From a virus (Duplodnaviria > Caudoviricetes), in IMG/VR virus record IMGVR_UViG_3300005259_000074, positions 1-64,000 of that record: a stretch of DNA of 64,000 bases. One strand, 5' to 3'. Shown here piece by piece: positions 15,320-63,612 of the stretch. The position numbers and the translations under genes are program-made. Each line of letters opens with the position of its first letter. Positions within the stretch are counted from its first letter, which is position 1. Below the pieces are notes generated by a model. The model saw only the letters and a list, made by a program, of their open reading frames with translations. It was not told the DNA's origin and did not search any database.

Positions 15320-17386
15320 ATGTCTACTCAAGTCGCTATCACCCCCATCATCGAGATCCTCTCCAAGAGGGTCACCGCAGCCTCCAAGCATATGGTCCAA
15401 TCGATCCCAGCTACTCAGCTAGATAAATTCGGGATGCAAGTGGACAACAGTCTGAAACTCCCGACGGTTACCAGCGAAGAGAGAGAAGCTAGCGTGTGGC
15501 GCCTGCTCAGAGAGCTAGGCATATACAAAGACGAAGAGAGTTTTGAGCTGCTCACGTCTGAGGACAGCAAAGAAGGAGACTTTCGAGCAGTGTTCTGCGA
15601 CAAGTACAGCGTGCCCGTCCCACGTTTCAAGCGCATGTGGAAGATACTGACAGAATCGCCTAATGAGAAAAAGTCTGATCGTTCAGAAGCTACGAGAAAT
15701 CTACTGCAGCAGTTATTCTATAATGAAAAAGACTTTGTTGACCGAGAGAAGAAGTTCTTACAAGAAGAGCGCGAGAAGTTAGAGCTCCAAGAATTGTTAG
15801 GAAAAGACACACTAAACATAGCTAGAGAGGCTCTAGGAATTACAGAAGATGAAGTTAACACGTCTTGGGACAAGCGAATGAAAAGATTTGCGACGGCTAC
15901 TAACAAGATAAAAGAGGAAGTTAAGAAGTTAGGTGGCTGCATTCCATTGACAGCAGACAAGAATAAGTTTACATCATGGAAAGATAAAGAGATCGACATA
16001 CTGAAATCTGAGGGTCTCGTAGATGTGAACAATTTTGTAGAGGGAGCAAAAGTTGCCGAAGCTTCGGTGAATGCAGTCGAGAAAGAATCCGTCAACAAGA
16101 TGCTGCTAGACCAAGTGAAGAACGGCAATTGGATAGACGAAGAAGACAAACTCCAGCAGATCTCCGACATGTTGAAGAAAGTAGACCTCAATAGAGCCGA
16201 TGTTTCTATTGAAATCAACGCTAAACCTGAGATCATAAAAGAGACCTTATCTGCGATCTCAAATGACGCTACGGACTTTGAATTAGCTCGTATTAAGAGG
16301 AGTGTGGACACGGTTAGGGATGTCATAGAAGAATTCAAGAAGATGAGTGGACCAATCGAGGCGCCTGTGGCGAATCAGCCCATGCCTTCGCTACAAGACT
16401 TCAGGACAATGCCGTACGATGAAGTGACAGCTAAGAAAGTAGAGAGCGTCGCGAAGACGATGAATGCTGCTCTCTTTGAACGTGAGGACAAGATCGCCGA
16501 GAAAGACGCTCAAGACATAGCTAAGTACACACACTGTCTCAGCTGGGGGAGTATGAGCGACGAAAAATTGCTAACCGAGTACGCTCAGATCACTTCTGTG
16601 ATAGACCCAGCTAACTTATTCACTAGGAAGTATAGTTCTATCGTAGCAGAGATAGAAAGGCGGGCTGGTGGGACGAGACCCTGCATAATCTGGAACACCG
16701 ACGCGACAGTAGACGTGAAGATGTCCGTAAGAGCTCTCAGAGAATGCAGGAAGAAAGAGCACTATTCATGTGTGTCGACGCTCGGTTGGAAGAGACTGAG
16801 GAAAGCTGCTGACCCAGTGAACACCGTGTACGTGTTCAAGTCCCCTGTCTCGCTGACGAAGTTGAACTACGTTTCACCGTGCGAGCACTATGATGATGGA
16901 AAAAACACTTGCATTATAGACTGGAGCACCTGGACTGCTCGCTCTCTCGCCATGATATGGGCGATCGCCCGAGAAGAAGATAAAAAAGATATATCTACTT
17001 TGACTAGAATGGACAAGGTGTACAACGTCTTGCAGCAGTTTGAGAAGATGAAGGAAGATGGATTTACACAGTCCTTAGATATGCACCCAGAGTACGCTAA
17101 ACACCTGACCGCGCTCGTCGAAAAAGAAGAAAAAGACGAGACCATAAAGACTACAATAGGTGGTGATGTTGGAGTGATAGAAGAAGACATTCTAATGAAC
17201 CTCGTGGGAGAGATGCATGCTAGACTGAGGTACAACCAGATATACGAGCCGAACGACATCTCATCCAATGGTAATTCTTTCAGTGACCCGATGGAGAACT
17301 GCGCTTCTTCGCTCTTGGCTGGCAAGTTAGACATCGTGACTGAAGTCGATCTGAACATTCCTAAGATAGTGAAGGTAATCCTCTGA
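15320..17386 (+). CDS. large coiled-coil hypothetical protein with C-terminal Cys-containing domain
   Basis: Long uninterrupted ORF; RPCIIWNTD and PCEHYDDGKNTC motifs. Confidence 0.75.
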   Translation: MSTQVAITPIIEILSKRVTAASKHMVQSIPATQLDKFGMQVDNSLKLPTVTSEEREASVWRLLRELGIYKDEESFELLTSEDSKEGDFRAVFCDKYSVPVPRFKRMWKILTESPNEKKSDRSEATRNLLQQLFYNEKDFVDREKKFLQEEREKLELQELLGKDTLNIAREALGITEDEVNTSWDKRMKRFATATNKIKEEVKKLGGCIPLTADKNKFTSWKDKEIDILKSEGLVDVNNFVEGAKVAEASVNAVEKESVNKMLLDQVKNGNWIDEEDKLQQISDMLKKVDLNRADVSIEINAKPEIIKETLSAISNDATDFELARIKRSVDTVRDVIEEFKKMSGPIEAPVANQPMPSLQDFRTMPYDEVTAKKVESVAKTMNAALFEREDKIAEKDAQDIAKYTHCLSWGSMSDEKLLTEYAQITSVIDPANLFTRKYSSIVAEIERRAGGTRPCIIWNTDATVDVKMSVRALRECRKKEHYSCVSTLGWKRLRKAADPVNTVYVFKSPVSLTKLNYVSPCEHYDDGKNTCIIDWSTWTARSLAMIWAIAREEDKKDISTLTRMDKVYNVLQQFEKMKEDGFTQSLDMHPEYAKHLTALVEKEEKDETIKTTIGGDVGVIEEDILMNLVGEMHARLRYNQIYEPNDISSNGNSFSDPMENCASSLLAGKLDIVTEVDLNIPKIVKVIL

Positions 17387-17655
17387 ACGATCCGAAGATA
17401 GGCTGCGTACGCAGGAACAAGGGTGTCGGCATCGGCGGTGGTTTCATATGCACCGCCGATGCCAGAGATCCAAAAGACACGTGCGCGTTCGTCAAGCTAG
17501 ATAAGTACAAGCTGTGCTCCTACTTGGGATCTGCATTCTCCTCTCTGCAGGACAGAGTCAACACTAGAGAGTGCACTTCGTCAGACGCAGTCGAAGCGCT
17601 GAGGAAGAAGGAGAAGGAAGAACTGTCTATCATCAGGGCACTGGACGGAATCTAG
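17383..17655 (+). CDS. CRT-family protein with probable CTG start
   Basis: Absent from the ORF track; translated by hand: 5 Cys, ...RECTSSDAVEA...IRALDGI*; CTG overlaps upstream TGA. Confidence 0.6.
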   Translation: MNDPKIGCVRRNKGVGIGGGFICTADARDPKDTCAFVKLDKYKLCSYLGSAFSSLQDRVNTRECTSSDAVEALRKKEKEELSIIRALDGI

Positions 17656-18149
17656 ATGATATCTTGCTCTCTCAGCGTCTCCAACACTTTCTGAGAATCG
17701 CAGAACATCTTCTTCTTGAACAATCTGCTGACGGGCATCCATTCCCATCCTTCGCACTTGTCGGGTTCAGCGTTAGACACCACGATCTCTTCGAGAGTCT
17801 TAGATGGACACAGCACGACGTACACCGTCAAGAACACTTCTCCGTCGACTACATCTTCGAAACACATCATACCAGGTCCTCGAGCTTCGATGACACTGCG
17901 AGGGTCTATTCCGCATTCTTCGTGCAGTTCTCGCTTAGCGCACTCCAATATGCTCTCATCTGGTTCTAGATGCCCACCTGGAAGAGACAGCGTACCGCTT
18001 CCAGCGCAGTTCTTCCTCTTTCCGACGAGCACGTTCCGCCCTCTGATGCCGTCGAGCAGCACTACTCCCACGCCTATCTGGTGACGGAATGGATACGAGA
18101 CTCGCTGTCCATTGATGTCTGATGAGAGAATTCTCGTAGCTGATGGCAT
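17652..18149 (-). CDS. Nudix hydrolase (NUDT15/MutT-like)
   Basis: GVGVVL..VGKRK..LPGGHLEPDESILECAKRELHEECG Nudix box. Confidence 0.9.
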   Translation of the reverse strand: MPSATRILSSDINGQRVSYPFRHQIGVGVVLLDGIRGRNVLVGKRKNCAGSGTLSLPGGHLEPDESILECAKRELHEECGIDPRSVIEARGPGMMCFEDVVDGEVFLTVYVVLCPSKTLEEIVVSNAEPDKCEGWEWMPVSRLFKKKMFCDSQKVLETLREQDII

Positions 18150-18160
18150 GTGTGGTCTCC

Positions 18161-18460
18161 TCAGATGTTTTCTATCTTCTTCGTTATCTTTTCTTTAGCT
18201 TCAGACTCGGACATCGTCAAGCGAATCGTGCAGTCGTCAGTGCTGCTGCTAGTCACGCCGAAGTAGTCCGGAAAGTTCTCTTTGAGGATGGAGTGGAAGT
18301 GATTGTTGAGATCTCTGACGCGGTACAACACGGGATGAGACAGTTCCGCGAATAGCGTCTTCCAGCCGGTCCTGCTAGTCCTTGTCTTGAACTTCACAGA
18401 CACTCCAAGAGTTTTTAAACATTCTCTGAGATTTTGCTTCTGTTGCGTGTAGTCGATCAC
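18161..18460 (-). CDS. hypothetical protein with C-terminal tag (KIENI)
   Basis: GTGA-coupled start at 18460; ends KITKKIENI*. Confidence 0.6.
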   Translation of the reverse strand: MIDYTQQKQNLRECLKTLGVSVKFKTRTSRTGWKTLFAELSHPVLYRVRDLNNHFHSILKENFPDYFGVTSSSTDDCTIRLTMSESEAKEKITKKIENI

Positions 18461-18660
18461 TGTTTCTTCACCCAGTCCTTCCAAGAGTTTCTAAAGCAGG
18501 AGAACCACTTCCTTCCAGAGCATTTTCCATTGTGTTTACACGTCCTGCAGGTGTTCTGATAGCTTTCACTTTGTTCCCTCATAGCGACGATGCAACCCCA
18601 CGCGATCAAGCTAAACAGAGTGACGACTACCGCGGTCTTCACGCAGATCAGTACTAACAT
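18457..18660 (-). CDS. small membrane protein with CxxC
   Basis: N-terminal TM; CRTC..C..C. Confidence 0.55.
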   Translation of the reverse strand: MLVLICVKTAVVVTLFSLIAWGCIVAMREQSESYQNTCRTCKHNGKCSGRKWFSCFRNSWKDWVKKQ

Positions 18661-18704
18661 ATGATCCCTCTTCTTCCTTCTAATTCCTCATATTAAAGTA
18701 CCGC

Positions 18705-20437: not shown

Positions 20438-21814
20438 TCAGATTGTAGCGTTCTTGCGGACTTCGTCGAACGTGTAGTCCCTCAGCAGTACGCCGTCTCT
20501 GAAGACTTCGACTAGCTGTTCTCTCGGATCGCCGACAGGAAGTTCGGAGACCGTGTACCAGTTGTCTCCTTCTCTGACCAGAGATAGCTTGCCTTTCTTC
20601 GATGCCTTAGAACTGTCGAGAGGCTTCTTGAAGATGTCGTGCCAGACGCCGTCTCTCTTCTGAGCGCTCGATTTGAACGCGTTTCGCAGCGTGTCTCGGT
20701 TGAGCTTCTGGAGGAGGCCGCCGCCCATGCCTGCGATGAGGTTGCACGATGCCCAGTTGTTGAACCTCATCGTCGAGAGGATGCTGCGGATCCCCTGGTA
20801 GTCGATACCGTCTCCCCACAGAGTTCCGACCTTCGGGTTGAGGACTTTGAAGCCCTTCTTGTTCTTCGTAGCGCCGAAGTTCTTCTCGAGGCTGTCTAAC
20901 ACGTCTCCCATGACGGACACTGGGTCTCCAGAGTCGGGTCTGAACACGACTTTTCCGTCTCTTGCAAGGATCTTCTCCTTGAACTTGGTCCCAGCTAACT
21001 CGCAGAAGTTCGTGTAGCTGTAGCTGTCTATGACCAGCGACAGTATCCCAGATGGGTACTTGTCGAGCAGCTGACCCAGCAGCGTCTCCTCGCCTGCCTG
21101 GCCAAGCGACGTCATGATGCTGTGCTCAGTCGCCGGGACGCTGAACCCAACTGCGGAATCGGCGTGGTAGTACTCCATCGCTGCTTCGAGAGCTTGCACT
21201 GTATCAGTCCCCATGAAGTTGATGAGGTGTGCGAGACCTCCGATCCCAGCTGACTCCACGCTAGACACACCGCGGAAGCCGAAGTCGTGCAGTTGGAATG
21301 GGAGGATGTCTTTGTCGTCGCAAGTCCAGTCTGCGTAAGTGTTGAACATCAACTTCGTCTCTCTCGACAGAGACGCGACAGTGCTGCCGTACCACACGTG
21401 GGTGAGGATCGTCTCGAGGTAGTTTGTCAGCCAGAAGCACTTCGGGTCGGTGTTCTCGACAGTCATCAGGACGTTGTTGATAGTCACCGGAGTCCCCTCC
21501 GGGACAGCCCTGATGACTACTGGGAGTCTACCGCCGTGCGCGTTGAGGATGTACTCCCACCCAGCACGGTTGAACTTTCTAGGGCCGAGGTGAGAGGAGA
21601 TGAGCTTGTCTGCCCTATCGATCTTCTCTCGCGTCACGACGACGCCTTCGAGGTAGGACTTGATTATGTACTGCAAGCCGAAGAAGACCGTCTTGTTGAA
21701 CGTCGCACCCTTCCTCGACTCGAAGTAGCTGTAGACGCCTTCTGTACCGTCCGGATATTGATTGAAATGGCAGAACTTGTAGCTGTCGCTCAGTGTGCAG
21801 ATGTTGGTCTTCAT
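20438..21814 (-). CDS. nadV: nicotinamide phosphoribosyltransferase (Nampt)
   Basis: SDSYK.CH..QYP, HDFGFRGVSS, SVPATEHS, RPDSGDP, GGGLLQKLNRDT. Confidence 0.95.
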   Translation of the reverse strand: MKTNICTLSDSYKFCHFNQYPDGTEGVYSYFESRKGATFNKTVFFGLQYIIKSYLEGVVVTREKIDRADKLISSHLGPRKFNRAGWEYILNAHGGRLPVVIRAVPEGTPVTINNVLMTVENTDPKCFWLTNYLETILTHVWYGSTVASLSRETKLMFNTYADWTCDDKDILPFQLHDFGFRGVSSVESAGIGGLAHLINFMGTDTVQALEAAMEYYHADSAVGFSVPATEHSIMTSLGQAGEETLLGQLLDKYPSGILSLVIDSYSYTNFCELAGTKFKEKILARDGKVVFRPDSGDPVSVMGDVLDSLEKNFGATKNKKGFKVLNPKVGTLWGDGIDYQGIRSILSTMRFNNWASCNLIAGMGGGLLQKLNRDTLRNAFKSSAQKRDGVWHDIFKKPLDSSKASKKGKLSLVREGDNWYTVSELPVGDPREQLVEVFRDGVLLRDYTFDEVRKNATI

Positions 21815-30999: not shown

Positions 31000-31230
31000 T
31001 CAAACCAGTTCTAACCTCTTTATTAAGACGGCCTCTTTCTTGGCGCTGACGTAGTTGCAGTTCCCCTTGTAGCAGTACTCGCACGTGACTGCGTACTCAT
31101 TGATCATCTTCTCTGGGACATGTCGATAATAGGAGCAATTCTTCTGCTCGGAGTACTCCGAATTTTCGCAACACACGAACCTAGGTGCGCCGTCTTCGTT
31201 TTCGACCATAGTGCACATGTTAGTCTTCAT
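31000..31230 (-). CDS. CRT-family protein
   Basis: MKTNMC...CSYY...C..C..AKKEAVLIKRLELV*. Confidence 0.75.
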   Translation of the reverse strand: MKTNMCTMVENEDGAPRFVCCENSEYSEQKNCSYYRHVPEKMINEYAVTCEYCYKGNCNYVSAKKEAVLIKRLELV

Positions 31231-31451
31231 AAATTCTCCAATACGTAGTTGATCTTGACTTCTCTGACGACTTCTTCATTCCAGCACACTCCAAACTCAC
31301 CGTGCATACATAACTTAGACGGATTTCCGTCGTTGTCTTTTCCTCTAGTCTCAGTGCAGTAGTAATCGCAAGATGCCGAATTCTGCTCGGGAGAAAGACA
31401 CACAACCACCGCTGAACTATTCATCACTCGAACTCGCCCCGAGACCCTCAT
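31227..31451 (-). CDS. CRT-family protein
   Basis: CDYY...C..C..; ends YVLENL*; ATGA-coupled. Confidence 0.7.
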   Translation of the reverse strand: MRVSGRVRVMNSSAVVVCLSPEQNSASCDYYCTETRGKDNDGNPSKLCMHGEFGVCWNEEVVREVKINYVLENL

Positions 31452-47315: not shown

Positions 47316-47346
47316 CTCTTTACATTCTCTGAAAGTGGTGTAAATT
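47316..47346 (+). promoter_or_regulatory. early-type promoter CTCTTTACA-N16-TAAATT
   Basis: Same motif; upstream of the homing endonuclease gene. Confidence 0.55.
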
Positions 47347-47413: not shown

Positions 47414-49039
47414 ATGACACCTGAAGAGCTTAAAGAATTTCTCAAAGATCCGAATATGAAAAAGAACTTCGGAGCGATCGCTGCTTCAACTAAAGTTGGG
47501 ACGAAGTACTTTGATGTAAGAACGACTCTCTACGAGGAGACTTCATCATTTCCAGATGCTTCGATAAGTGAACGCATCTTCTGTGTTTTGAACGGAATTA
47601 AACGTCCCAAGATATGTAAGTGCGGTTGTGGGAAACTAGTCAACGACCAACGGCATGACTATCTCGCATCTCACGGAAATAGAGATCCTGAGGTCAAAGC
47701 TAAAAAGGAAGAGTCTTACAAAAAGAAGACAGGCTATACTAATCCATCTCAGAATCCGGATGTCAAGAAACAGAAAGCTGACACTTCGATCAAAAATTGG
47801 GGAGCAGTTAGCTACATGCGGACCGATGAAGGTAAAAAGATGCATGATGATAGCATGCTAAAATTGCACGGAGTTGTGAACCCCTTTCAGATACCTGAAG
47901 TCAAAGCTGATATTCAGATAAAGTGGAAAGTTAAAAAATCCGAGACTATCAAGAAGATAAAAGAAACTGGTAAAAAAACATTCTTCGAGAAAATGTTGAC
48001 ATCAAATAGAATGGGTTCTATCAGACCACTATTTACTATCGATGAATATGCTGGGTGTGACAAGTATTATCGATTCATGTGTACCACCTGCAACAAAGAA
48101 TTCACCGACAGAGTCATCAATGGACGCATTCCTCGTTGCACTACGTGTTATCCTCTCATAGATTCCGGTGGTCGTTCTTTAGCTCAACAAGAAGTGACAG
48201 ACTACATTAAATTTTTAACAGACCAAGAAGTGAAAGAGGAAGATAGAAAAGTACTAGAGGGAAAAGAACTTGACATATACATTCCTTCGTTGAACATAGC
48301 ATTTGAATACTGCGGTCTCTATTGGCACAGTGAGATATCTGGCACGGAACGCAACAAGGACGCTGATAAAGGTAGGCACTATCATGTTGGAAAATTTAAG
48401 AAGTGTTCTGATAAAGGCATTAAGCTCATCACAATTTTTGAAGATGAATGGGTGTATAGACAAACACAAGTAAAAGGTAGAATAAGAGCACTGTTAGGAG
48501 CATGTGAGAAAATTGGAGCACGTGAGTGTTCTGTTGAGAAATTGAATTTTGAAGAATACTCCCAATTTGTTGATAACTATCACATACAAGGAAGCACAAA
48601 TGCTTTTTTGACAGCATACGGTCTCAAGTATGGTGGAGAAGTCCTTTCAGTCATAGGTATTTCTAACAAGCGCGGTATCTTTAAGGGAGGAAAGAAAGAT
48701 TGTCTAGAACTCATCAGAATGTGTTCTAGAGATGGAATAGAAGTTGTTGGTGGGATGTCACGGTTGATATCTGCTGTTGCAAAAGATTACCCAGAAAGAT
48801 TGCTAGTTTCATATGCAGACAGACGATGGAGTGATGGAAATGGATATGTTAAGACTGGATTCATAGCAGTCAATACATCTACTGCTAATTATTGGTATGT
48901 CAAAGATGGAGAACGTCACCACCGTCTGATAGCGAGAGATAAACGAATCACAGGTCTTACTGAATGGGAATCGATGCAGATTCTTAAGTATGACAGAATA
49001 TGGGATTGTGGCACAATCAGATTTGAAAAGATTCTCTAA
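47414..49039 (+). mobile_element. Hef-like homing endonuclease (PD-(D/E)xK) with DNA-binding repeats and C-terminal GNAT/Mom-like domain
   Basis: AT-rich; CKCGCG, NPSQNPDVK repeats, CTTC..CTTC, ELDIYIPSLNIAFEYCGLYWH...IFEDEW, then ELIRMC..VVGG..WSDG..WDCG; next to gp23. Confidence 0.8.
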
Positions 49040-49143: not shown

Positions 49144-50532
49144 TTAGTACATGAACACTCTGCTGCCACTTGCCTCAAGAACCGAGGAGGTGAGTCCGTC
49201 GACCTTGATGAAATGGTAATAGTTTCCTGCGCCGAACAGATTGCTCAAAATCCCGTAGCGGGTCCTGACACCGATCCTAGGAGTGAAGTTCTCCTGGCCG
49301 AGAGCCCTGAGCAACTGAACCGGGATGTACGGAGTATATATGATACCCGCATCATACGGAGTTGGTCCCTTGTACCCGAGGAGCGCGTAGTTGCCCATGG
49401 CGAACGTATCCCTGTAGAGGGTGATTCCGCCGTTGCGCATCGTGCCGACCTTGGAGATTCCGACCGTATTCGTGTCGAGGGCTGCGTTTCCAGCCTTGTC
49501 GAGGACGAAGTCCTGGAGTCTCTCGAGGATTGCGCAGACGTTCGGGGAGCCGAAGGCGAAGGTCGCCGGGCCTCTCCTGGACGTGATTGCGATCTCGTTG
49601 GACTTCTGGAGGATCTGGGTGTAGAGAGTGCCGATACGCTCGAGCTGGTTCCTGCCGTCAGCAGAGACCGGGCTCCAGGTCGACACGCGTCCACCTGCGA
49701 TAGCAGCCTTCACCATTTCTGCGAGGAGCTGACGGTCGATTTCCGCCTGGATCTCGTAGGAGATGATGTTGACCATCTCAGCATCGACGTCTACGCCGTG
49801 CATGTTCATCATGTCTTCAGCGAGTTCCAGCGACCAGTGGGCTGCGAGCTTGCGGCTCTTAGCTTCGACTATCGCCTTCTCCATGCTGAACTTGGCCATC
49901 GGCATGTCCTCGCCAATATTCCACCACTCGGAACCAGCCAGAGTAGCGCCCTGACCGTCTTCACCGTAGGTGTTCTGGCCGAGAGCACCAGCAGAACCGG
50001 TGCCAGCGAAGGCTTCCCAGTATGCGCCGGTAGTCGCGTTGCCGGAAGCGCCGGTGAACGCGGAGTCTACGAGGTTGTACCCGATCTCAGTTCCCTGAGT
50101 GACGGTACCCTTGCCGTTGGAGCCGTAGCGCGCGCGGAATGCGAACGCGAATCCAACCGGGCCGTACATCGGCTGAACACCGACGGTGTTGTGGGCGATG
50201 AGCTCGGGGAATATACGCCTCGCGGTCGGGATTACGATCGTGGGCATGCGGGCGTCGTTGGCGCCGTAGTCGAAAGTGCTGCCGAGCTGACCTGCGCCAT
50301 TCGGGAGGCCAGTCGTGTATGCACCGGCCTGCGCACCCATTCCGGCGGCCTGTCCAGCGTAAGACTCGTTGACCTTGTCGAACTCGCGCTGAGTGTTCTC
50401 GAGGACTAGTGCCGTCGAGAGCCTGACTTGCTCCGAGCTGATCTTGGAGAGACCCTCGGCCTCGAGGACCGGAGTCCACTTCTCTAGGACCTTCTCCTGG
50501 TAGTTAGCCGGGAGGTGCTGGTAGAGACTCAT
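49144..50532 (-). CDS. gp23: T4-like major capsid protein
   Basis: EKWTPVLE..LVLEN, VGVQPM.GP.G..FA.R, KSRKLAAHWSLELAED..HGVD, EIQAEIDR, DAGIIY.PY, TRYG..NLF. Confidence 0.97.
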   Translation of the reverse strand: MSLYQHLPANYQEKVLEKWTPVLEAEGLSKISSEQVRLSTALVLENTQREFDKVNESYAGQAAGMGAQAGAYTTGLPNGAGQLGSTFDYGANDARMPTIVIPTARRIFPELIAHNTVGVQPMYGPVGFAFAFRARYGSNGKGTVTQGTEIGYNLVDSAFTGASGNATTGAYWEAFAGTGSAGALGQNTYGEDGQGATLAGSEWWNIGEDMPMAKFSMEKAIVEAKSRKLAAHWSLELAEDMMNMHGVDVDAEMVNIISYEIQAEIDRQLLAEMVKAAIAGGRVSTWSPVSADGRNQLERIGTLYTQILQKSNEIAITSRRGPATFAFGSPNVCAILERLQDFVLDKAGNAALDTNTVGISKVGTMRNGGITLYRDTFAMGNYALLGYKGPTPYDAGIIYTPYIPVQLLRALGQENFTPRIGVRTRYGILSNLFGAGNYYHFIKVDGLTSSVLEASGSRVFMY

Positions 50533-55606: not shown

Positions 55607-56179
55607 TTATGTGTTGAGACCGCCGGTGGCAACAGGGTCGGCCTGTCCGGTGCCCTCTGGATACCAGTACTGGTATGCGAAGGTGACGTCGAACGTCGAA
55701 GGAGTAGCAGCGTCGTAGGAGAGCTGCAAGTCGCCTATCTGAGACGGGAATATGCCCGCCATGACGTAGGTCGAAGCGATGTTCTGCATGTCGGGGGTCA
55801 GGAGGTCTATCCTAGCGAGGTCAGTTGGGACGGTCTTCTGCCCTCCGCCGCCGTACTGGATGTTCGAGAATATGTTCATCCACTGCTCAAAAGTGGTCCT
55901 GACGACCATCGCATTGTCGCAGTGCACCGTCACATTCCAGGAATCGCCGTAGTTGACGATGCCCGGGAGCTTGAACTTGATGCCCTGGTATGCGATCTCC
56001 TCGGCGGATATCTGCTTGCCCGGGAGGGAAGTCGCCGTGCAGTAGAACGCGAAGGACGGACCCAACACCGGAGAGGACACAGAGGACGAAGTCACAGTCA
56101 GCTGGAACTGGTTCTGCAACCTCTGGGGTGTAGAGGAAATGTAGCTGTAGAAGCCCTGTAGTGATTGGACGTTACCCAT
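55607..56179 (-). CDS. gp19: T4-like tail tube protein
   Basis: CTATSLPG, WNVT..D....R..FEQW, GIFPSQIG.LQLSYD, FDVTFAYQYW. Confidence 0.9.
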   Translation of the reverse strand: MGNVQSLQGFYSYISSTPQRLQNQFQLTVTSSSVSSPVLGPSFAFYCTATSLPGKQISAEEIAYQGIKFKLPGIVNYGDSWNVTVHCDNAMVVRTTFEQWMNIFSNIQYGGGGQKTVPTDLARIDLLTPDMQNIASTYVMAGIFPSQIGDLQLSYDAATPSTFDVTFAYQYWYPEGTGQADPVATGGLNT

Positions 56180-56206
56180 CTTAAGAGTATCCTTTCGGTT
56201 TCATTC

Positions 56207-56277
56207 TATTTACACAGATCTGGCTCCTGCGCCAGACAGATGCATCGCGAGACACTTCTCGCGGTATTCTATTTATC
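56207..56277 (-). promoter_or_regulatory. two late promoter variants (TGTAAATA 56207-14, GATAAATA 56270-77) with two intervening hairpins
   Basis: Boxes upstream of gp19; stems TCTGGC/GCCAGA and CGCGAGA/TCTCGCG. Confidence 0.6.
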
Positions 56278-56289
56278 AACGGAGATCTC

Positions 56290-56739
56290 GTGACGACTCT
56301 AGAAACCTACATACCGGTGAAGAACGAGAGGACTGCGGTAGACGTACCTTTTCCTAACTTCATCGTCACATCCGCGGTTTCTTTCAAGTCCCCACAGAGC
56401 ACTCACGTTATAAGGGCAGAGCTGAGGACGGCCGAGGGAAAGATCCAGAAGTTCACCGTAGAGTGCGTGTTGAAGACCGATTTCATCAGGTGTCCTTGCT
56501 ACGGCAACTACAAGGGCTTCGGTGTCAAAAAAGTAGAAGACATCATATCGTTCTGGATGTCTTTCAGGAATGATAGAGGGTACGGAGATCTTAAACCAGT
56601 CAGTTGTATGCACATGGACACCGACTGGAAGTACCAGACAGGTGAATCGATCGTGTGTCACTGTTCGGAAATAGCTTCGCACTTGATAAACACGTGCTAT
56701 AAAGATGAGTTCACGCTGCAGAAGTTGGAGGAGATATGA
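56290..56739 (+). CDS. extended CRT-family protein
   Basis: CVLKTDFIRCPCY..C..CHC..; ends LQKLEEI*. Confidence 0.7.
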   Translation: MTTLETYIPVKNERTAVDVPFPNFIVTSAVSFKSPQSTHVIRAELRTAEGKIQKFTVECVLKTDFIRCPCYGNYKGFGVKKVEDIISFWMSFRNDRGYGDLKPVSCMHMDTDWKYQTGESIVCHCSEIASHLINTCYKDEFTLQKLEEI

Positions 56740-57107
56740 CAGACGCCGAACGAGAGGACATCTTAGACTCGTACAGAGTGGTGAGCGACTCCAGAGACGA
56801 GCCTAACGCCGGAGACATGATCATCGTCAAGCTCGAGTCTCCCATCGGACACCGGATCATAGGCGAAATGAAGTTCGACAGAAACCACGTCAAGTACTTC
56901 GCGTCGATGTGCGTGTTGAAACCAGATTTCTCCAGGTGTCCTCGCTACTCGGAGAGCGGTAATTGCTGCGTCCACATGTACCCGAGTAAAGACCCTCTCG
57001 AATCATGGTGGGCTGTCCAGTGTTTTGATGAAGTGATATCGAACTTCGTCATACGCAGAGGTAATCTAGAAGACGAATTCGCTCTAATGAAAATGGAAGA
57101 AATGTAG
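56736..57107 (+). CDS. extended CRT-family protein (paralog of 56290..56739)
   Basis: CVLKPDFSRCPRY; ends LMKMEEM*. Confidence 0.7.
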   Translation: MTDAEREDILDSYRVVSDSRDEPNAGDMIIVKLESPIGHRIIGEMKFDRNHVKYFASMCVLKPDFSRCPRYSESGNCCVHMYPSKDPLESWWAVQCFDEVISNFVIRRGNLEDEFALMKMEEM

Positions 57108-57112
57108 GACAC

Positions 57113-58768
57113 ATGAGTTTCGACTGTAAGAGCTATTTTCCGTTCCCAAAAGCCAGAGTCGTCCAGCAGAAGGTGCTGGACGTCGCTAAAGATGCGTACG
57201 AATCCGGATTCGACCACGTGGTCCTCTCAGCTCCGACCGGAGTAGGGAAGAGCGCTATAGCAGTAGCGCTATCTAACTGGCTCAACAAGACCAGTGGGGC
57301 GCAGACGTATGGCCTGACTAGCCAGAAAGTGCTCCAAGAGCAGTACTGCAGCGATTTCAACATTCCAATGCTCAAGGGTAAGGCCAACTTCAAGTGCGCT
57401 AAGGACCCGTTCGGCAACTTGAAGTGCGACGCCGGAGTCTGCATGATGCTGAGAGCTAGGGGGAAAGCGGTGACCTGCGCTGGAGCGTGTCCCTACATCG
57501 CCGCGAGAGACCTAGCTTACTCGAAACCGATGCTCGTGACGAACTACCGCTACTTCCTGAACATGTCGCTAGCCGCTGAGATAATGAAGCACGACGGCAA
57601 AGAGCTGTTTCACCAACCCAGAGAGCTGCTGGTGCTAGATGAGGCCCACCGCGTGGAATCTGAGGTTCTCGAATTCGCGTCACTGTCGTTGAAGTCTGAT
57701 GACTTCCTGTCTTTTGGGTTGGGGAGGAAGTTCTTGAAGCTCCCGGAGTCTAGCACTACAGAAGCAGATTTGGTGACGTGGCTAGACGATCACGGGCTTC
57801 CGGTGCTCAACGACAAGTACAACCGCGAGCTGCTGGAGCTAGCTCAGATGGACGAGAACGACAAGAAGACTTATGCGCAGAGCAGGAAGGTCAAGTTCTT
57901 GGACACGCTGATATGCATGGGCAACCGGTTGAACTCGGCAGCTAAGTCTGGCATTCCAGTCTGCGCGTGGGCGGGAGAAGGTACTGCCGACTTCAAACTG
58001 GTGTTCGGCAAGTCTGCTTGGGACAAGTGGCTGTCTATCTACGGGAAGTACAAGCTGTCGATGTCTGCCACAATCCTCTCCAAAGAGCAGTACTGCGAAG
58101 AGCTGGGGTTAGACCCGTCTAGAGTCAAGTACATCAAGTGTCCGTCTCCGTTCGACGTAGAGCACCGGAAGATACTGGCAGTCCCAATCGGAAGTATGTC
58201 GTACTCAAAGAAGGAGTCGACCCTGCCGCTACTAGCCAGAGCCGTGGAGAACATCCTTTCTAAGCACGCAGATGAACGTGGGATCATACACTGCGTTAAC
58301 TACGGGGTCGCTAGCTACATCCTCTCCAACGTGTCTCCAGAGGCGCAGAACCGCTTGGTGTACCCCAAGGGGGAAGACCGAGACGAGCTGATAGACTTCT
58401 TCATGAGGCAGTCGAAGCACCGGAGAGACTTGGTGCTGATCAGCCCGTCTCTGGGAGAGGGGATAAACTTGCGAGGAGAGCTTGCGAGGTTTGCTATCAT
58501 ATGCAAAGTCCCATACGCAGGATTGGGCGATCCCTGGGTCAAGAAGAGGATGTCGATGGACAACACTTGGTACTCGGACTTCGCTTCCAAGAACTTAGTC
58601 CAGATGACTGGGAGGACTGTCAGGACTGAAGACGACTGGGCGAAGACCTACGTGTTAGACGACGACTTTGTGAAGCACGTCGTGCGGAACCAAGACAGGC
58701 TCCCGCAGTGGTGGTTAGACTCAGTCAAACCGGCTGACAGAGCGCTGATAGATGAACTCACTAAGTGA
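57113..58768 (+). CDS. DinG/Rad3-like SF2 DNA helicase
   Basis: APTGVGKS, DEAH, MSAT, GIIHC, SPSLGEGINL, QMTGRTVR. Confidence 0.92.
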   Translation: MSFDCKSYFPFPKARVVQQKVLDVAKDAYESGFDHVVLSAPTGVGKSAIAVALSNWLNKTSGAQTYGLTSQKVLQEQYCSDFNIPMLKGKANFKCAKDPFGNLKCDAGVCMMLRARGKAVTCAGACPYIAARDLAYSKPMLVTNYRYFLNMSLAAEIMKHDGKELFHQPRELLVLDEAHRVESEVLEFASLSLKSDDFLSFGLGRKFLKLPESSTTEADLVTWLDDHGLPVLNDKYNRELLELAQMDENDKKTYAQSRKVKFLDTLICMGNRLNSAAKSGIPVCAWAGEGTADFKLVFGKSAWDKWLSIYGKYKLSMSATILSKEQYCEELGLDPSRVKYIKCPSPFDVEHRKILAVPIGSMSYSKKESTLPLLARAVENILSKHADERGIIHCVNYGVASYILSNVSPEAQNRLVYPKGEDRDELIDFFMRQSKHRRDLVLISPSLGEGINLRGELARFAIICKVPYAGLGDPWVKKRMSMDNTWYSDFASKNLVQMTGRTVRTEDDWAKTYVLDDDFVKHVVRNQDRLPQWWLDSVKPADRALIDELTK

Positions 58769-59003
58769 TTTAGACAACTTGTGCAGACCCTGGGGTCTCT
58801 CAGTCGACTCACAAGGACACTGTTTCGGAGCTGATCCATTGATGGGTCCATATGGTTCTGGTTTCGATCGTCAGACCGAGTGCGCTTACTTCGAATACTC
58901 CGCAGTAAAAGACAGATGTAAGTTCTTCATCGGTTATCGCAACTGCAGTTGTGATAGAGCCCTGGAGAACGCTATCGTGGCCAGAAAGATAGAAGACCTG
59001 TGA
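58752..59003 (+). CDS. CRT-family protein
   Basis: NLC..HC..CAYF..C..CSCDRALENA..RKIEDL*. Confidence 0.8.
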   Translation: MNSLSDLDNLCRPWGLSVDSQGHCFGADPLMGPYGSGFDRQTECAYFEYSAVKDRCKFFIGYRNCSCDRALENAIVARKIEDL

Positions 59004-59257
59004 TGAAATCTCCTCTGTGTAAGAGTTACTGGAACGGATGGCACTGCGAAGCTTCGCGGATTGACCTGACGTGGTTTCCACCGACATTCGTCTCTGACGC
59101 TGAGAAGCAATCCCAGTGTGAGTTCTTCGAACGAGACAACAAGAATGAATGCCGATGGTTCAATGTTAACATCAACAATTTCCACGTGTTCAGCACCTGT
59201 TCGTGTGGTGCTGCCCACGCGATGGTGTTGGCCGACAAGATAATGGAAGATTTCTGA
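59000..59257 (+). CDS. CRT-family protein
   Basis: CEFF..C..CSCGAAHA..KIMEDF*. Confidence 0.8.
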   Translation: MMKSPLCKSYWNGWHCEASRIDLTWFPPTFVSDAEKQSQCEFFERDNKNECRWFNVNINNFHVFSTCSCGAAHAMVLADKIMEDF

Positions 59258-59470
59258 TCAGAGTCGATCTAGTTTCTCGTCCATGCGAGCTTCTCTGCTG
59301 AGACACACGTAACCACTCTTAGCATTCAACACGTGCTGACAACGTACATTCTCGAAGTATGGGGATGTTTCTTCCGGCTCAAAGAACTCACACGTTGACA
59401 TCCGCGGTCCCATGCTGATGAAAGCTTCACAGTAGTACGTTCCGTCTTTGTATATCCTGCAATAGTTCAC
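59258..59470 (-). CDS. CRT-family protein
   Basis: GTG 59470 after AGAGGA; CEFF; ends EKLDRL*. Confidence 0.8.
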   Translation of the reverse strand: MNYCRIYKDGTYYCEAFISMGPRMSTCEFFEPEETSPYFENVRCQHVLNAKSGYVCLSREARMDEKLDRL

Positions 59471-59481
59471 ATTTTCCTCTG

Positions 59482-59730
59482 CTATATGCTCTCCAAGGCG
59501 TTCATAGTCGATTTCTCCAGTCGGGCTTCGGCGTTGGTGCACCTGTGTTCTTCTTTAGAAAAACCTTTTCCGTTGGACCTCCACTTACACCGATTGTACT
59601 GCTGGTACCCGGACAGATGGGACGCGTTATCGTTTTCGAAATATGAACAGTCTTTCATGTGAGGACTAAAGTTCATGAATCCTTCACAGATGAAAGAGTC
59701 TCCTGCTATTCTGCACATATTATCTTTCAC
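59482..59730 (-). CDS. CRT-family protein
   Basis: GTGA-coupled MKDNMC; CSYF; ends NALESI*. Confidence 0.8.
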   Translation of the reverse strand: MKDNMCRIAGDSFICEGFMNFSPHMKDCSYFENDNASHLSGYQQYNRCKWRSNGKGFSKEEHRCTNAEARLEKSTMNALESI

Positions 59731-59948
59731 AGCTCCTCCAGTTTCTTCATTAACAATGAGTCTTCTATTGCTGACCAACACGTGCAGAAGTTATCGCGAT
59801 TCCGGTGTTTGCAGTCTCCGTGACCGTTTTCGAAGAACTTGCAACTGCGGATGTCTAGTGTTCTATCCCACAGCACCGTCCTACACACGAAGAAAACTTC
59901 AGTGGGGTCTGATCTCTTCGACAACATCTCACAGAGGTTACTCTTCAT
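59727..59948 (-). CDS. CRT-family protein
   Basis: MKSNLC; CKFF; CTCWSA; ends KKLEEL*. Confidence 0.8.
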   Translation of the reverse strand: MKSNLCEMLSKRSDPTEVFFVCRTVLWDRTLDIRSCKFFENGHGDCKHRNRDNFCTCWSAIEDSLLMKKLEEL

Positions 59949-60139
59949 AATTCTTCCATCTTTAGCAATGTCTGGGCATCTCTCTGGGCTTTTTCACACA
60001 AGCAATATATGACATTGCCGCTCCCTTGATAAACGCACTTTCCACCATTCCCCTCATAGAAATCGCATTTATCCAGAGATGCTAACACACTAAGTCTACA
60101 TAAGAATTCAATTTCTGCAATTACGCACAAGTTATTCAC
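59945..60139 (-). CDS. CRT-family protein
   Basis: MNNLC; CDFY; CLCEKA; ends LKMEEL*. Confidence 0.8.
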   Translation of the reverse strand: MNNLCVIAEIEFLCRLSVLASLDKCDFYEGNGGKCVYQGSGNVIYCLCEKAQRDAQTLLKMEEL

Positions 60140-60453
60140 AGCGTCTCCATCTTGGCTGCTATGAGTGAATCTTCGTTAGCATTCCTGCACATACATAAGG
60201 AGTGCGACGCCTCATCATTCTCGACGTAGTGACACCTCCAGCCGGCCGCGGCCCCTATCCCATCTGGTTTAAAGTACTTGCACATGAACATAGGAGTGAT
60301 ATTCGGATCTACTTTTGGCGACGCTGGAAAGATACCGTAGTTGTTGCACTTCTTTACGGCTTCTTGTTCAGTCTTCGACCGGAGCACCGCAGTGCACCAG
60401 AAAGAAGGCTTCGCGAAATCTTCATATCCAACGCACGTGCAGCAGTTCGTCAT
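60136..60453 (-). CDS. CRT-family protein
   Basis: MTNCC; CKYF; CMCRNA; ends AKMETL*. Confidence 0.8.
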   Translation of the reverse strand: MTNCCTCVGYEDFAKPSFWCTAVLRSKTEQEAVKKCNNYGIFPASPKVDPNITPMFMCKYFKPDGIGAAAGWRCHYVENDEASHSLCMCRNANEDSLIAAKMETL

Positions 60454-60680
60454 AACTCCTCCATGTTCCGGTCTATCTGAGCGTCCACGTTAGAGCAGAA
60501 GTGAGTGAAGTCCCAACGTCCGATTGGTGGATTGTCCCGCTTCACAGCGAATTTGCATTCTTTCGTGTCGTGAGTGGATGTCTCCTCTCTGAAATCACAG
60601 TTGGTATTGATTGGCTTAGGCTGTGGGCGCGGGGTTCTCCAACACATGTATTCTCCCGATACCTTCAAGCAGCGGTTCAT
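60450..60680 (-). CDS. CRT-family protein
   Basis: MNRC; CDF; ends RNMEEL*. Confidence 0.8.
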   Translation of the reverse strand: MNRCLKVSGEYMCWRTPRPQPKPINTNCDFREETSTHDTKECKFAVKRDNPPIGRWDFTHFCSNVDAQIDRNMEEL

Positions 60681-60925
60681 ATGTCCTCCAACTTTTGGAG
60701 CAGATTCTGTTGCTCTCTAGAGATGATCGCCGCTGGGCACAAGCAGAAATCTCTGTGGTTTCCTACTGTCCACACGCACCGGCCCTTCTTCTCTTCGAAG
60801 TAGACGTATGGATCGCACTCTTCAAAGAACTCACAATCTCTTATTCTGACACCGACGAACACGAAAGACATGCAGTACGTCTTTTCGTTGAGTACGTCGC
60901 ACATGTTGAATTTCTGAGTTGTCAT
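60677..60925 (-). CDS. CRT-family protein
   Basis: ATGA-coupled start 60925; CEFF; CLCPAA; ends QKLEDI*. Confidence 0.8.
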   Translation of the reverse strand: MTTQKFNMCDVLNEKTYCMSFVFVGVRIRDCEFFEECDPYVYFEEKKGRCVWTVGNHRDFCLCPAAIISREQQNLLQKLEDI

Positions 60926-61149
60926 ATGTCTTCCATCTTCGCTTCTAGACGAGCGTCGAGATGAGCTTTCTCGCAGTTGCACAACTTATAGAAGTCGTTC
61001 TGTGCCCATGCACAAGTGCCTCTAAATGTTACCCACTCTTCGAAGAACTCGCATTCACTGAGTTCGTCTGACAACTTCGCAGTGCACTTGAACCACCTGT
61101 CATCGGTGAGTTTATCAGGATTGATGTGCATCAACTTACAGAAGTTCAT
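60922..61149 (-). CDS. CRT-family protein
   Basis: MNFC; CEFF; CNCEKA; ends AKMEDI*. Confidence 0.8.
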   Translation of the reverse strand: MNFCKLMHINPDKLTDDRWFKCTAKLSDELSECEFFEEWVTFRGTCAWAQNDFYKLCNCEKAHLDARLEAKMEDI

Positions 61150-61373
61150 ATGTCCTCCAACTTAGACGATAGCAGGCTGTCTTCCTGTGCTTCTTCGGAA
61201 CAGCAGTACCAGTACTCGTCTTGGTGATAGCACTTCTTTGCACTCGCGGCTGGTTTAAAGAACTCGCACAGTTGACAATAGTATTGTGTATGGTACGAGG
61301 GCTTGCAAAAGAAATCGATTTCGGAGCTACCGTTGAGGTTGACGTAGGCTACTGAGCAGAGGTTCTCCTTCAT
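61146..61373 (-). CDS. CRT-family protein
   Basis: MKENLC; CEFF; ends SKLEDI*. Confidence 0.8.
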   Translation of the reverse strand: MKENLCSVAYVNLNGSSEIDFFCKPSYHTQYYCQLCEFFKPAASAKKCYHQDEYWYCCSEEAQEDSLLSSKLEDI

Positions 61374-61660
61374 ATGTCTTCTAGCTCCAGCATCAACCGT
61401 TCGTCTTTAGTAGCTTCAGGACACTCGCACATGAGATTCATACTGTCCGTCCACACACAACTATTTCCAGATACATATTTGCTCTTGAAGAAACAACACG
61501 TCCTCTGTGCTACTCCAAAAGACTGCCCGTGAAATTCATTGTACAGCTGATTAGCTTGATGCACTCTCATAGAGATTGGACTTCCACCACATAGGAAGCG
61601 AATTTCATCGTCAATATCAGTTTTAAAGCCCTTGCACAAGCTCTTCCTTGCTGGATTCAT
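61370..61660 (-). CDS. CRT-family protein
   Basis: CCFF; CECPEA; ends LELEDI*. Confidence 0.8.
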   Translation of the reverse strand: MNPARKSLCKGFKTDIDDEIRFLCGGSPISMRVHQANQLYNEFHGQSFGVAQRTCCFFKSKYVSGNSCVWTDSMNLMCECPEATKDERLMLELEDI

Positions 61661-61881
61661 ATCTCATCTAGCCTCGTTGTCATCTTCGCTTCTTCTATAG
61701 CTTCGCGGCAGTCGCAGAACTCGAGAACGATCCCAGACGACCACTCACAACTGTTGGCGTTAGTGCTCCCTCTCCGAAAGTACTTACAGTCCGTCACAAA
61801 CACCACGTCTCCTCGAGACAGCGCAGACGTCTTGACTAAGCCGCCGCACCATCCATGGTGCGTGCAGAAGTTCTCCTTCAT
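61657..61881 (-). CDS. CRT-family protein
   Basis: MKENFC; CKYF; CDCREA; ends TRLDEI*. Confidence 0.8.
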   Translation of the reverse strand: MKENFCTHHGWCGGLVKTSALSRGDVVFVTDCKYFRRGSTNANSCEWSSGIVLEFCDCREAIEEAKMTTRLDEI

Positions 61882-62096
61882 ATGTTCTCCAGTGCGTGTT
61901 CAGCCAGAGCGTCTTCTCTTGCCGCCTTACACCAGCAGTCGTTCCCATCGAAGGCTTTGTCGTGCCGGCACCGCGGGTATGGGTAGTCAAATCCCTCGAA
62001 GTACTTACAACCGCTAGTATACTCCAACGAACGTAGAGCGTGACACCGAAACGTGATGTTACCTTTATTTTCGTGCACTTCACAGAAATTCCTCAT
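61878..62096 (-). CDS. CRT-family protein
   Basis: ATGA-coupled MRNFC; CKYF; CWCKAA; ends HALENI*. Confidence 0.8.
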   Translation of the reverse strand: MRNFCEVHENKGNITFRCHALRSLEYTSGCKYFEGFDYPYPRCRHDKAFDGNDCWCKAAREDALAEHALENI

Positions 62097-62323
62097 ATCT
62101 CTTCCAACTTCATGTTCAGGAGTTCTTGATTCCTCACTTCTGGGTGTCCACACTCCGTCATTATAAGTCCACGCTTCTTCCATCGGCATTCCACGCCATT
62201 CGGCTCCCACTCAGCTTGGCGAAAGTGATCGCACTCTCTCATGTTATACATCGTCCCAATGCATGGGAACCAGATGTTTGAGATGTTGAACGCATGCACA
62301 TCTATCGCCACACAGTGGTTCAT
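62093..62323 (-). CDS. CRT-family protein
   Basis: MNHC; CDHF; ends MKLEEI*. Confidence 0.8.
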   Translation of the reverse strand: MNHCVAIDVHAFNISNIWFPCIGTMYNMRECDHFRQAEWEPNGVECRWKKRGLIMTECGHPEVRNQELLNMKLEEI

Positions 62324-62556
62324 AAGTCCTCCAGCTTCGCCAACGTTGTCAGCTCTACTATAGCTTCATCTTTGGCTGCTTGGTTGGAGCACCTGTATTC
62401 TCCCATGTCTCCTGGAGCAATCTTGTACCGACACCTGACAGACAGCGTGTCACGTCCACATTCACCGTGAGAGCATTCTCTGAATGATCCCGCATAACAG
62501 CGAAAATCTCGGTTTTGCTCTCTAAAGTTGTCTACGTGCACGCAGTTCTTCTTCAT
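62320..62556 (-). CDS. CRT-family protein
   Basis: MKKNC; ends AKLEDL*. Confidence 0.8.
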   Translation of the reverse strand: MKKNCVHVDNFREQNRDFRCYAGSFRECSHGECGRDTLSVRCRYKIAPGDMGEYRCSNQAAKDEAIVELTTLAKLEDL

Positions 62557-62807
62557 ATCTCATCCATCTTCTTCATCAGTGAGTACTCTTCATAAGCCAT
62601 TTCACATGCGCGATCACACGAGCACTCTATCGTCGGAGGCGCCGCGCGAACGAGGACATAGTTGAATTTAACATGTATGCACTGTCTGTTAAACGACTTC
62701 TTCTTATAGAACGTGCACTTCCTCGCGAGACGAGATGAATTCCCGGCAGTGCATCTGTTCCAACCCCAGCTCCCTCCCGTTGTTTCGTGCTGGCACATGT
62801 TCTTCAT
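62553..62807 (-). CDS. CRT-family protein
   Basis: MKNMC; CTFY; CSCDRA; ends KKMDEI*. Confidence 0.8.
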   Translation of the reverse strand: MKNMCQHETTGGSWGWNRCTAGNSSRLARKCTFYKKKSFNRQCIHVKFNYVLVRAAPPTIECSCDRACEMAYEEYSLMKKMDEI

Positions 62808-62998
62808 ATGCTCTCTATGCCTCTGAGGATCGTCGTGTTGACCCAGTTCTTTCTGACAGCACCGGTGTTAGTGCACCGTCCTCTACACTTGAACTTACAC
62901 GACTTCTTGTGATCTTCGTCGAGTGATGTGAAATATTCACACGGGTTGTCGCGAGTTTTCCAGCAGAAGGACCACCAGCTCTTCGGAGGCTTTATCAT
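62804..62998 (-). CDS. CRT-family protein
   Basis: CEYF..C..C..C; ends RGIESI*. Confidence 0.75.
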   Translation of the reverse strand: MIKPPKSWWSFCWKTRDNPCEYFTSLDEDHKKSCKFKCRGRCTNTGAVRKNWVNTTILRGIESI

Positions 62999-63237
62999 AT
63001 CTCCTCCATCTTATCGACAAGGCCAATTTCATCTTTCGCTATTGGGTTTGTGCAGTCTCCGTCAAATTGTAAATCTGCATTATCTACGCACATTCGTTGG
63101 TCGAACCACTCGCACTTCTTCATTTTCTCGATCAGCTCATCTCTGTTGTAAAGACCTACGCGTAAAACCTTACACCCACAAAAGATATGAGTATAACCTG
63201 GATATATGTGCACTTCAGGTTTCATCTTATATTGCAT
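62995..63237 (-). CDS. CRT-family protein
   Basis: CEWF; first gene of the 17-gene array; ends DKMEEI*. Confidence 0.8.
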   Translation of the reverse strand: MQYKMKPEVHIYPGYTHIFCGCKVLRVGLYNRDELIEKMKKCEWFDQRMCVDNADLQFDGDCTNPIAKDEIGLVDKMEEI

Positions 63238-63259
63238 ATGTCATTTCTTTCTTTATGTT

Positions 63260-63290
63260 AAAATAACACGCGAATGATGTTTGTAAAGGG
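63260..63290 (-). promoter_or_regulatory. early-type promoter CCCTTTACA-N16-TATTTT
   Basis: Upstream of the 17-gene CRT array. Confidence 0.6.
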
Positions 63291-63314
63291 AACTAGAGGA
63301 TTTTTCTTCAGTTT

Positions 63315-63344
63315 CCTTTACATCTTCATTTCAGATTGTATTAT
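63315..63344 (+). promoter_or_regulatory. early-type promoter CCTTTACA-N16-TATTAT
   Basis: Divergent partner of the 63260..63290 promoter. Confidence 0.6.
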
Positions 63345-63366
63345 ACTTATGAAAGGAAATAAGTTT

Positions 63367-63612
63367 ATGTCAGATGGGAAAACATCATTCGCTGTGTTCA
63401 ACATCGGTGGATTTATGACGTTCTGCATTGCAAATGGCCGTCAACACGATTGCACTTATTTTGAACCCACTAAAGATCTATCTGTTTGTAAGTGGCAGAA
63501 GAGCACTCCGAGTCTATTCTGTCTAGAATGTCGGTGTAGACCAGCGAGAGACGCGGCCCAAGACCAATATTTCGCTGAGAGAGACTTAGAGCGAAAATTA
63601 GAGGACATATAG
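63367..63612 (+). CDS. CRT-family protein
   Basis: ATG 63367 after AAAGGA; CTYF; CRCRPARDA; ends RKLEDI*. Confidence 0.8.
   Translation: MSDGKTSFAVFNIGGFMTFCIANGRQHDCTYFEPTKDLSVCKWQKSTPSLFCLECRCRPARDAAQDQYFAERDLERKLEDI

Follow-up and report, generated by a model that had tools for sequence, protein, structure and literature searches.

In T4-like phages, hyperplastic regions consist of small, fast-evolving early genes with promoter-early stem-loop (PeSL) cassettes (PMC2839356, PMC4122927). Here, a family of small, Cys-rich proteins was analyzed in a 64,000-nucleotide stretch of viral DNA (the window), which corresponds to positions 1-64,000 of the 262,470-bp IMG/VR record IMGVR_UViG_3300005259_000074; coordinates are given in window numbering unless genome coordinates are indicated. 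The CheckV completeness of this record is 97%, and, judged by its gene content, the source genome is that of an uncultured T4-type phage. It encodes a Gp23 major capsid protein with approximately 36% identity to cyanomyovirus capsids, together with a tail tube protein, a DEAD_2 helicase, a nicotinamide phosphoribosyltransferase (NAMPT), a CCA-adding-type enzyme, and a sulfatase. The locus resembles the hyperplastic regions in that blocks of small early-type genes of unknown function lie between conserved core modules, host-type early promoters are present, and the divergence between close relatives is far above that of core genes. However, it contains 119 paralogues of one scaffold rather than unrelated ORFans. 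Moreover, successive family genes overlap by 1-4 nt and promoter-like sites occur only at operon heads, so that, unlike PeSL cassettes, the genes form ATGA/GTGA-fused operons of up to approximately 27 genes.

Among the viruses of eukaryotes, the ankyrin/PRANC F-box proteins of poxviruses and the multigene families (MGF) of African swine fever virus (ASFV) comprise many diverged copies of a scaffold, which are usually explained by different host factors, and in PRANC proteins a constant C-terminal module recruits one common partner. The likeness to these families is conceptual only and lies in the many diverged copies of one small scaffold; no relation in sequence or fold was found, the phage infects a bacterium, its domain is much smaller, and a partner for the tail is hypothetical. 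Phage zinc-ribbon and treble-clef mini-proteins are likewise small, cytoplasmic, and Cys-rich, many of them being early proteins whose function is not known, and weak, non-significant fold matches to CGNR and MYND proteins were obtained for the present family. It differs from them by five isolated invariant Cys without CxxC or CxxH knuckles, the only close pair being C-x-C in 37% of copies. To our knowledge, no bacteriophage has been described in which a single protein family takes up a quarter of the genes. The reading favored here, with a probability of roughly 0.55, is that these genes form a real, lineage-specific, anciently expanded family of cytoplasmic proteins of approximately 75 residues serving as a repertoire of binders.

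The family was delimited with a hidden Markov model (HMM), which was seeded with 23 stop-to-stop open reading frames (ORFs) of the window that carried the C-terminal tail reported in the initial annotation together with nearby Cys, and which was then iterated over all such ORFs. The window model converged on 43 members (E<1e-3), while the next ORF down scored 0.027, and the model iterated over the whole genome retained 42 of these 43. Thus, the approximately 44 genes counted by the initial annotation were closely reproduced, and the arrays of 17, 11, 4, 3, 3, and 2 genes and the singletons it had described were recovered by the HMM. In the whole genome, 119 members (E<1e-3) and approximately nine borderline sequences were found, the members being distributed over 29 arrays or singletons with 23 genes in the biggest array. 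The family occupies 27.9 kb in total, which is 10.6% of the genome DNA, and accounts for approximately a quarter of the genes, where the gene calls outside the family are crude (approximately 461 genome-wide). The members in the window are 64-127 aa long, with a median of 76 aa.

The conservation figures were taken from an alignment of the 119 copies. Five Cys were invariant, with C1 at 99% (92% occupancy) and C2-C5 at 100%, whereas a sixth Cys at C5+2 was present in just 37%. Of the six-Cys pattern described at the outset, five positions were thus upheld and the sixth proved optional. An Asn two residues ahead of C1 was present in 79% of the copies, C3 was followed by an F/Y-F/Y aromatic pair, position C4+2 was H, Y, or F, and position C5+8 was Ala in 90%. 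The tail consisted of K/R (63%), L/M/I (99%), E/D (91%), E/D (61%), and I/L/V (97%). Between these anchors, the inter-Cys loops were 1-44, 0-55, 7-29, and 6-24 residues long, and the pairwise identity between paralogues was 22% on average and 43% at maximum, which bears out the claim that the loops are almost wholly different. The median isoelectric point (pI) was 5.7, with 56% of the members below 6 and 17% basic (pI >8). A scan for hydrophobic segments found neither an N-terminal signal peptide nor a transmembrane segment in any of the 119 members, as had been stated for signal peptides in the window; the proteins should therefore stay cytoplasmic.

Relatives were found in metagenomes. A profile search of 1.84 billion representative proteins gave 135 matches (E<=1e-3), of which 41 belonged to the genome itself and 94 came from elsewhere. 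All of the latter were metagenomic proteins without a name; with few exceptions they were 58-127 aa long, and the tail was present in most of them. A 14.7-kb JGI contig (L001) is syntenic with the window from 55.6 to 64 kb and beyond and carries approximately 40 family genes in the same order, and two ENA contigs (L007 and L008) are more distant, yet syntenic with other parts of the arrays. A few distant single-copy matches lacked the tail, one of them being a lone copy in an unrelated AT-rich phage contig. The top profile match, a 1048-aa SRCR-type protein (P0001), was judged a Cys-rich false positive, and a 415-aa repeat protein in a bacterial-type context (P0087) was not counted as a member. 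Distant profile matches of 415, 151, and 232 aa (L004 692-1939, P0095, and P0060) hold at least two tandem copies of a similar Cys pattern per polypeptide; one of these lies in a bacterial-type context beside an SNF2/HEPN helicase gene, and their kinship with the family is uncertain. At the DNA level, no near-identical or close match was found among GenBank phages. Scanning IMG/VR with the neighboring helicase returned no relative, and scanning metagenomes with it returned only two helicases, 33% identical and without family genes nearby.

The comparison with L001 allowed nonsynonymous (dN) and synonymous (dS) divergence, and the corresponding proportions of differing sites (pN and pS), to be determined. 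The tail tube protein was 100% identical in amino acids at a dS of 0.36, and the helicase was 93% identical (dN 0.05, dS 0.82). In the case of the 34 positional family orthologues, the identity was 35-85% with a pooled dN of 0.39, and within the 17-gene array it was 36-68%. For every copy examined, related phages have a separate orthologue at the corresponding position. The loop-versus-anchor comparison proposed in the initial annotation gave 74% identity and a dN/dS of 0.08 for the anchor columns and 44% identity and a dN/dS of 0.23 for the loop columns. Thus, the loops evolve approximately three times faster than the frame and are conserved between orthologues, and these ratios indicate that they are under purifying selection, neither neutral nor hypermutating. 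The nearest paralogue lies at a median distance of 22 kb, and recent duplicates are lacking (maximum identity 43%). No RVT_1 reverse transcriptase was found in the 262-kb genome, while control genomes were matched. Therefore, the diversity appears old and maintained rather than the product of ongoing hypermutation, and the loops were rejected as targets of a diversity-generating retroelement. It was also observed that dS is uneven along the comparison of 55607-58768 and 58752-63612 with L001, being 0.36 in the tail tube gene, 0.82 in the helicase gene, and near saturation in most of the adjoining array genes, so that the arrays may have a mosaic history or have undergone allele replacement.

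The fold was predicted for two members with AlphaFold2. The models of the members at 61146-61370 (pLDDT, the predicted local distance difference test, 90; pTM, the predicted TM-score, 0.77) and 41284-41556 (mba6c03b90a92; pLDDT 93, pTM 0.79) both have an N-terminal pair of strands through which C1 and C2 come close to each other, C3-C5 on small hairpins, and a C-terminal helix of 15-18 residues, while the loop of the long hairpin differs between them. As the alignments behind the two models have 40 rows in common, their agreement is a weak test of a common fold. Together with the alignment, they support the constant scaffold and constant C-terminal helix recognized earlier. A homodimer prediction for one member scored 0.00, but the fold was uncertain in that program, so this is evidence neither way.

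Known relatives were then sought at the levels of sequence and structure. Against Pfam and PHROGs, 41 members gave nothing at E<0.007 and no model matched more than one member; the Pfam zinc-finger models matched none of the 41, and PADLOC returned no match. The profile reached a best E of 0.37 among PDB sequences (a tick salivary Cys-rich protein, non-significant), tblastn of two members against 50,697 GenBank phage records gave no match at E<=1, and the family profile, when run in a word-indexed protein search, recovered nothing beyond the proteins of this genome. With the two models, the best Foldseek E was 0.97-1.5 against PDB, 0.55 against the BFVD viral structures, and 0.38-0.81 against the AFDB clusters, where the non-significant top matches were the CGNR and MYND zinc fingers. 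In a VIA-align search of 48,161 chains, the best Z was 2.5 and 2.1, where the program's own guidance states that models without a clear Foldseek match usually reach a best Z of 7-8, and searches of the ESM Atlas by features and by shape gave nothing above chance (best TM-score 0.42). The initial annotation had known no named family with this signature, and Pfam, PHROGs, PADLOC, PDB sequences, and the fold libraries agree. The family may represent a new small fold; blank fold-library searches of predicted models exclude no family and do not prove a new fold, and what they say is that no neighbor was found.

The genes are tightly packed. An ATGA or GTGA overlap with the next start is present in 81 of the 117 called members, and a further 20 have a start within 30 nt. 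A recurrent motif, TTTACA-N16-18-TAnnnT, which resembles T4 early promoters, has 15 strict occurrences genome-wide, mostly intergenic, its fuller form being TTTACAT-N16/17-(G)TTATATT. Sigma-70-like sites lie 19-24 nt ahead of the first start in the operons with 27, 17, and 11 members, where random 150-nt windows match at 3%; the early-type promoters reported before the largest arrays were thus located at the three largest operons. In contrast, 9 of the 11 T4-type late boxes (TATAAATA) in the genome lie within 60 nt upstream of non-family genes, and none of the 119 family genes is preceded by such a site. Because of the likeness to T4 early promoters and because the late boxes are located elsewhere, early or host-polymerase transcription is the likely class for the arrays, as deduced from these sites. 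A look-up of public sequencing runs for the 17-gene array returned none, RNA data sets included.

As most family genes run into the next start, the constant tail might be a by-product of gene packing, formed by the Shine-Dalgarno sequence and start of the next gene, with no role in the protein. The junction consensus AAG-NTG-GAG-GAN-ATA-TGA indeed holds GGAGGA followed by an overlapping start codon, with TGA as the stop in 88% of members, a last codon ending in A or G to form ATG or GTG, and GGAG at -9 of the next start, the same spacing as before this phage's other genes. The codon choice follows the same signals: the last Ile codon is ATA in approximately 83% versus 40% in gene interiors, the Leu codons CTC and CTT, which make up 32% of interior Leu codons, do not figure among the six most frequent codons at -4, and Glu at -3 is GAG in 64% versus 45% in interiors. 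Among orthologues, synonymous sites are conserved at codons -1 (pS 0.29) and -4 (pS 0.43), compared with approximately 0.7 elsewhere, and non-family genes with an ATGA overlap are also richer in Glu/Asp at -3 (40% versus 16%). Nevertheless, packing as the whole cause was considered unlikely. The 16 members without a close downstream start still keep the tail (hydrophobic at -4 in 100%, acidic at -3 in 81%, and hydrophobic at -1 in 100%), and Glu at -3 is conserved (pN 0.08) while GAG and GAA swap freely (pS 0.93). Moreover, the hydrophobic residues of the tail need a T at the second codon position, a base that is dispensable for both the Shine-Dalgarno sequence and the ATGA overlap, and the genes of the structural module overlap by ATGA without having the tail. 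These patterns, together with the tail-bearing non-family genes described below, indicate that the tail is a portable protein-level motif whose codons double for translational coupling. The initial annotation was right to treat it as a protein feature, and what it did not see is that the same codons also carry the Shine-Dalgarno sequence and start of the next gene.

The other alternatives concern the function of the whole family. In one of them, which was regarded as distinctly improbable, the proteins have no individual targets but are made in bulk, for instance to buffer metals or thiols, or represent a selfishly expanding cassette, and the loop diversity is drift on a scaffold that tolerates it. 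The very many copies on a common Cys framework, the wide variation in loop length, and the lack of similarity to any functional family are in line with this, but orthologous loops remain 44% identical at a dN/dS of 0.23 when paralogues average 22% overall, no recent duplicates exist among paralogues of at most 43% identity, and at least three diverged relatives have retained both the gene order and the gene content of the arrays. Small regulators that bind nucleic acids and control the phage's own program would also be expected as small Cys-rich domains with a C-terminal helix in early-type operons, and the 17% of basic members would suit such a role. However, the proteins are mostly acidic, 119 distinct regulators are far beyond plausible need, and no similarity to known DNA- or RNA-binding zinc modules was detected, which leaves this role little credence. 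Least probable of all are exported, disulfide-knotted peptides of the toxin, bacteriocin, or defensin type. Isolated invariant Cys rather than CxxC are typical of disulfide-rich mini-proteins, and the best, non-significant PDB sequence match was the tick salivary Cys-rich protein. However, secreted knottins or defensins would not be expected to lack signal peptides and transmembrane segments in all 119 members or to have invariant Cys that are odd in number. The genes also belong to early-type operons, and DsbA, an Erv-type oxidase, and thioredoxin were not found in the genome, the Erv search being weak, with control genomes also blank.

In the favored reading, a repertoire of binders, the Cys framework would hold a small stable domain, probably around a metal ion, and each copy would show a different surface and bind a different target, most likely a host or defense protein, early in infection. 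Ancient copies that are separately conserved, with a common frame and differing surfaces, form the pattern expected of specific binders against host functions or defenses. Some points weigh against it. The invariant Cys are single and five in number, which is a poor fit to a classic zinc finger or a disulfide set; both structures are predictions from alignments of the family itself; and the dS between orthologues is near saturation (pS 0.70), so that positive selection on the loops is neither shown nor excluded. If the reading is true, the family maps what the phage must neutralize and provides a natural library of stable 75-residue binding scaffolds.

The tail extends beyond the family. It also ends 39 non-family genes, where its internal frequency predicts 1.1 and independent frequencies at the C-terminus predict 4.0. 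Approximately 10 of these may be cryptic or divergent members with 5-6 Cys, while among the others are proteins of 181-402 aa and several in which the tail comes after a lone hydrophobic segment, and the L001 orthologues of the tail-bearing non-family proteins retain it. With hydrophobic residues at 0, -3, and -7 counted from the C-terminus, the tail would suit an amphipathic helix, whose hydrophobic face may either lie against the domain or be presented to a partner. The tail also fits the PDZ class III pattern ([DE]-x-hydrophobic-COOH), but no PDZ_2 or S41 peptidase was found in the phage genome, and bacterial PDZ proteins are mostly periplasmic. An ssrA-type or ClpX C-motif degron (LAA-COOH) was rejected, the tail being acidic at -3 (91%) and -2 (61%), and so was a homologous-recombination cassette at the junction, as too few junction bases are conserved and the synonymous sites at -3 and -2 are free. 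As a side observation, small non-family proteins with one hydrophobic, membrane-type segment and the tail approximately 20 residues later were seen at 2770-3057, 42906-43229, 43226-43555, and 45952-46227 (plus strand), and the same layout was seen at genome coordinates 177949-178380 and 246495-246860.

Because unrelated early proteins share the motif, a single common factor probably reads it, or else it would meet a common need of these small proteins. A more far-reaching version, which is possible but doubtful, is that more than 100 mini-binders and approximately 30 unrelated early proteins, including single-pass membrane proteins, share one C-terminal address. A single phage or host factor would then read [KR]-hydrophobic-E-[DE]-hydrophobic-COOH, and each binder would deliver the host target it has captured to a shared machine that degrades, sequesters, or modifies it. 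If true, phages would have an equivalent of the substrate-adaptor families known from eukaryotic viruses, with a previously unseen fold as its basis. More generally, the motif on unrelated proteins raises the idea of short C-terminal addresses in large phages.

The features of the window are summarized in Table 1.

Table 1. Family genes, tail-bearing genes, promoter-type sites, and other genes of the window.
Feature	Position	Strand	Remarks
CCA-adding/poly(A)-polymerase-type enzyme	1418-2773	+	with HD domain
T4-type late boxes (TATAAATA)	7944; 30971	-	
Divergent family-like frame	17365-17655	+	HMM E 1.5e-7 (window), 6e-6 (genome-wide)
Nicotinamide phosphoribosyltransferase	20438-21814	-	
11 family genes (65-127 aa)	31000-33587	-	HMM
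Non-family leader gene of the 11-gene operon (111 aa)	33595-33930	-	phrog_1479 (function unknown)
Sigma-70-like site TTTACA-17 nt-TATATT	33955-33983	-	24 nt upstream of the 111-aa leader gene
Two larger non-family tail proteins (372 and 188 aa)	34646-36327	+	tails KLEGV, AMEDL; no Pfam/PHROG match
Sulfatase-family protein	38917-40503	+	head of the operon containing the 4-gene array
4 family genes	40525-41559	+	last gene: tail KLEDL, TAG stop, no close downstream start
Further promoter-like motifs	41568-41595; 47319-47346	+	
Three non-family tail genes (107, 109, and 102 aa)	42906-43860	+	tails IEDI, LEEL, LEDL; two with hydrophobic segment
3 family genes	43857-44580	+	HMM
Three family genes (45713-45955, 46220-46480, 46477-46725)	45713-46725	+	HMM
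Tail-bearing membrane-type non-family ORF	45952-46227	+	between family genes of the 45713-46725 group
541-aa protein	47414-49039	+	just 5' of the capsid gene
Gp23 major capsid protein	49144-50532		
Two Cys-rich tail-bearing genes (149 and 123 aa)	56290-57107	+	first with family-like C-terminal half
Family gene pair	58752-59257	+	directly downstream of the DEAD_2 helicase gene; convergent with the 17-gene array
17 family genes (64-105 aa)	59258-63237	-	HMM E 1e-15 to 4e-6; mostly ATGA/GTGA overlaps
Sigma-70-like site TTTACA-16 nt-TATTTT with TG	63260-63287	-	22 nt upstream of the 17-gene array
Divergent sigma-70-like site TTTACA-16 nt-TATTAT	63317-63344	+	just ahead of the singleton
Singleton family gene (87 aa)	63349-63612	+	HMM; tail KLEDI, TAG stop

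Two loci lie at the border of the family. The divergent frame at 17365-17655 has no ATG, GTG, or TTG start and begins 22 nt ahead of the stop of a 698-aa ORF (15290-17386), overlapping its end; it could be translated from a CTG that follows GAAGG, be attached through a frameshift, or represent a dead copy. Membership is borderline for the 149-aa protein at 56290-56739, as the window HMM matched it with an E of 6e-8 over residues 74-184 of the open frame and it is absent from the genome-wide model list at E<1e-3. The L001 orthologues of both Cys-rich genes at 56290-57107 retain the tail.

The proteins of the window are also encoded on a 313,637-bp contig, and the virus record itself is classed as 'provirus'. 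Approximately 51 kb, which may be host DNA or further marker-poor phage DNA, were thus trimmed from this parent contig. The 541-aa protein beside the capsid gene matched the PHROG families of homing/HNH endonucleases with an E of 9e-92 and gave a weak match to a Mom-like DNA modification family.

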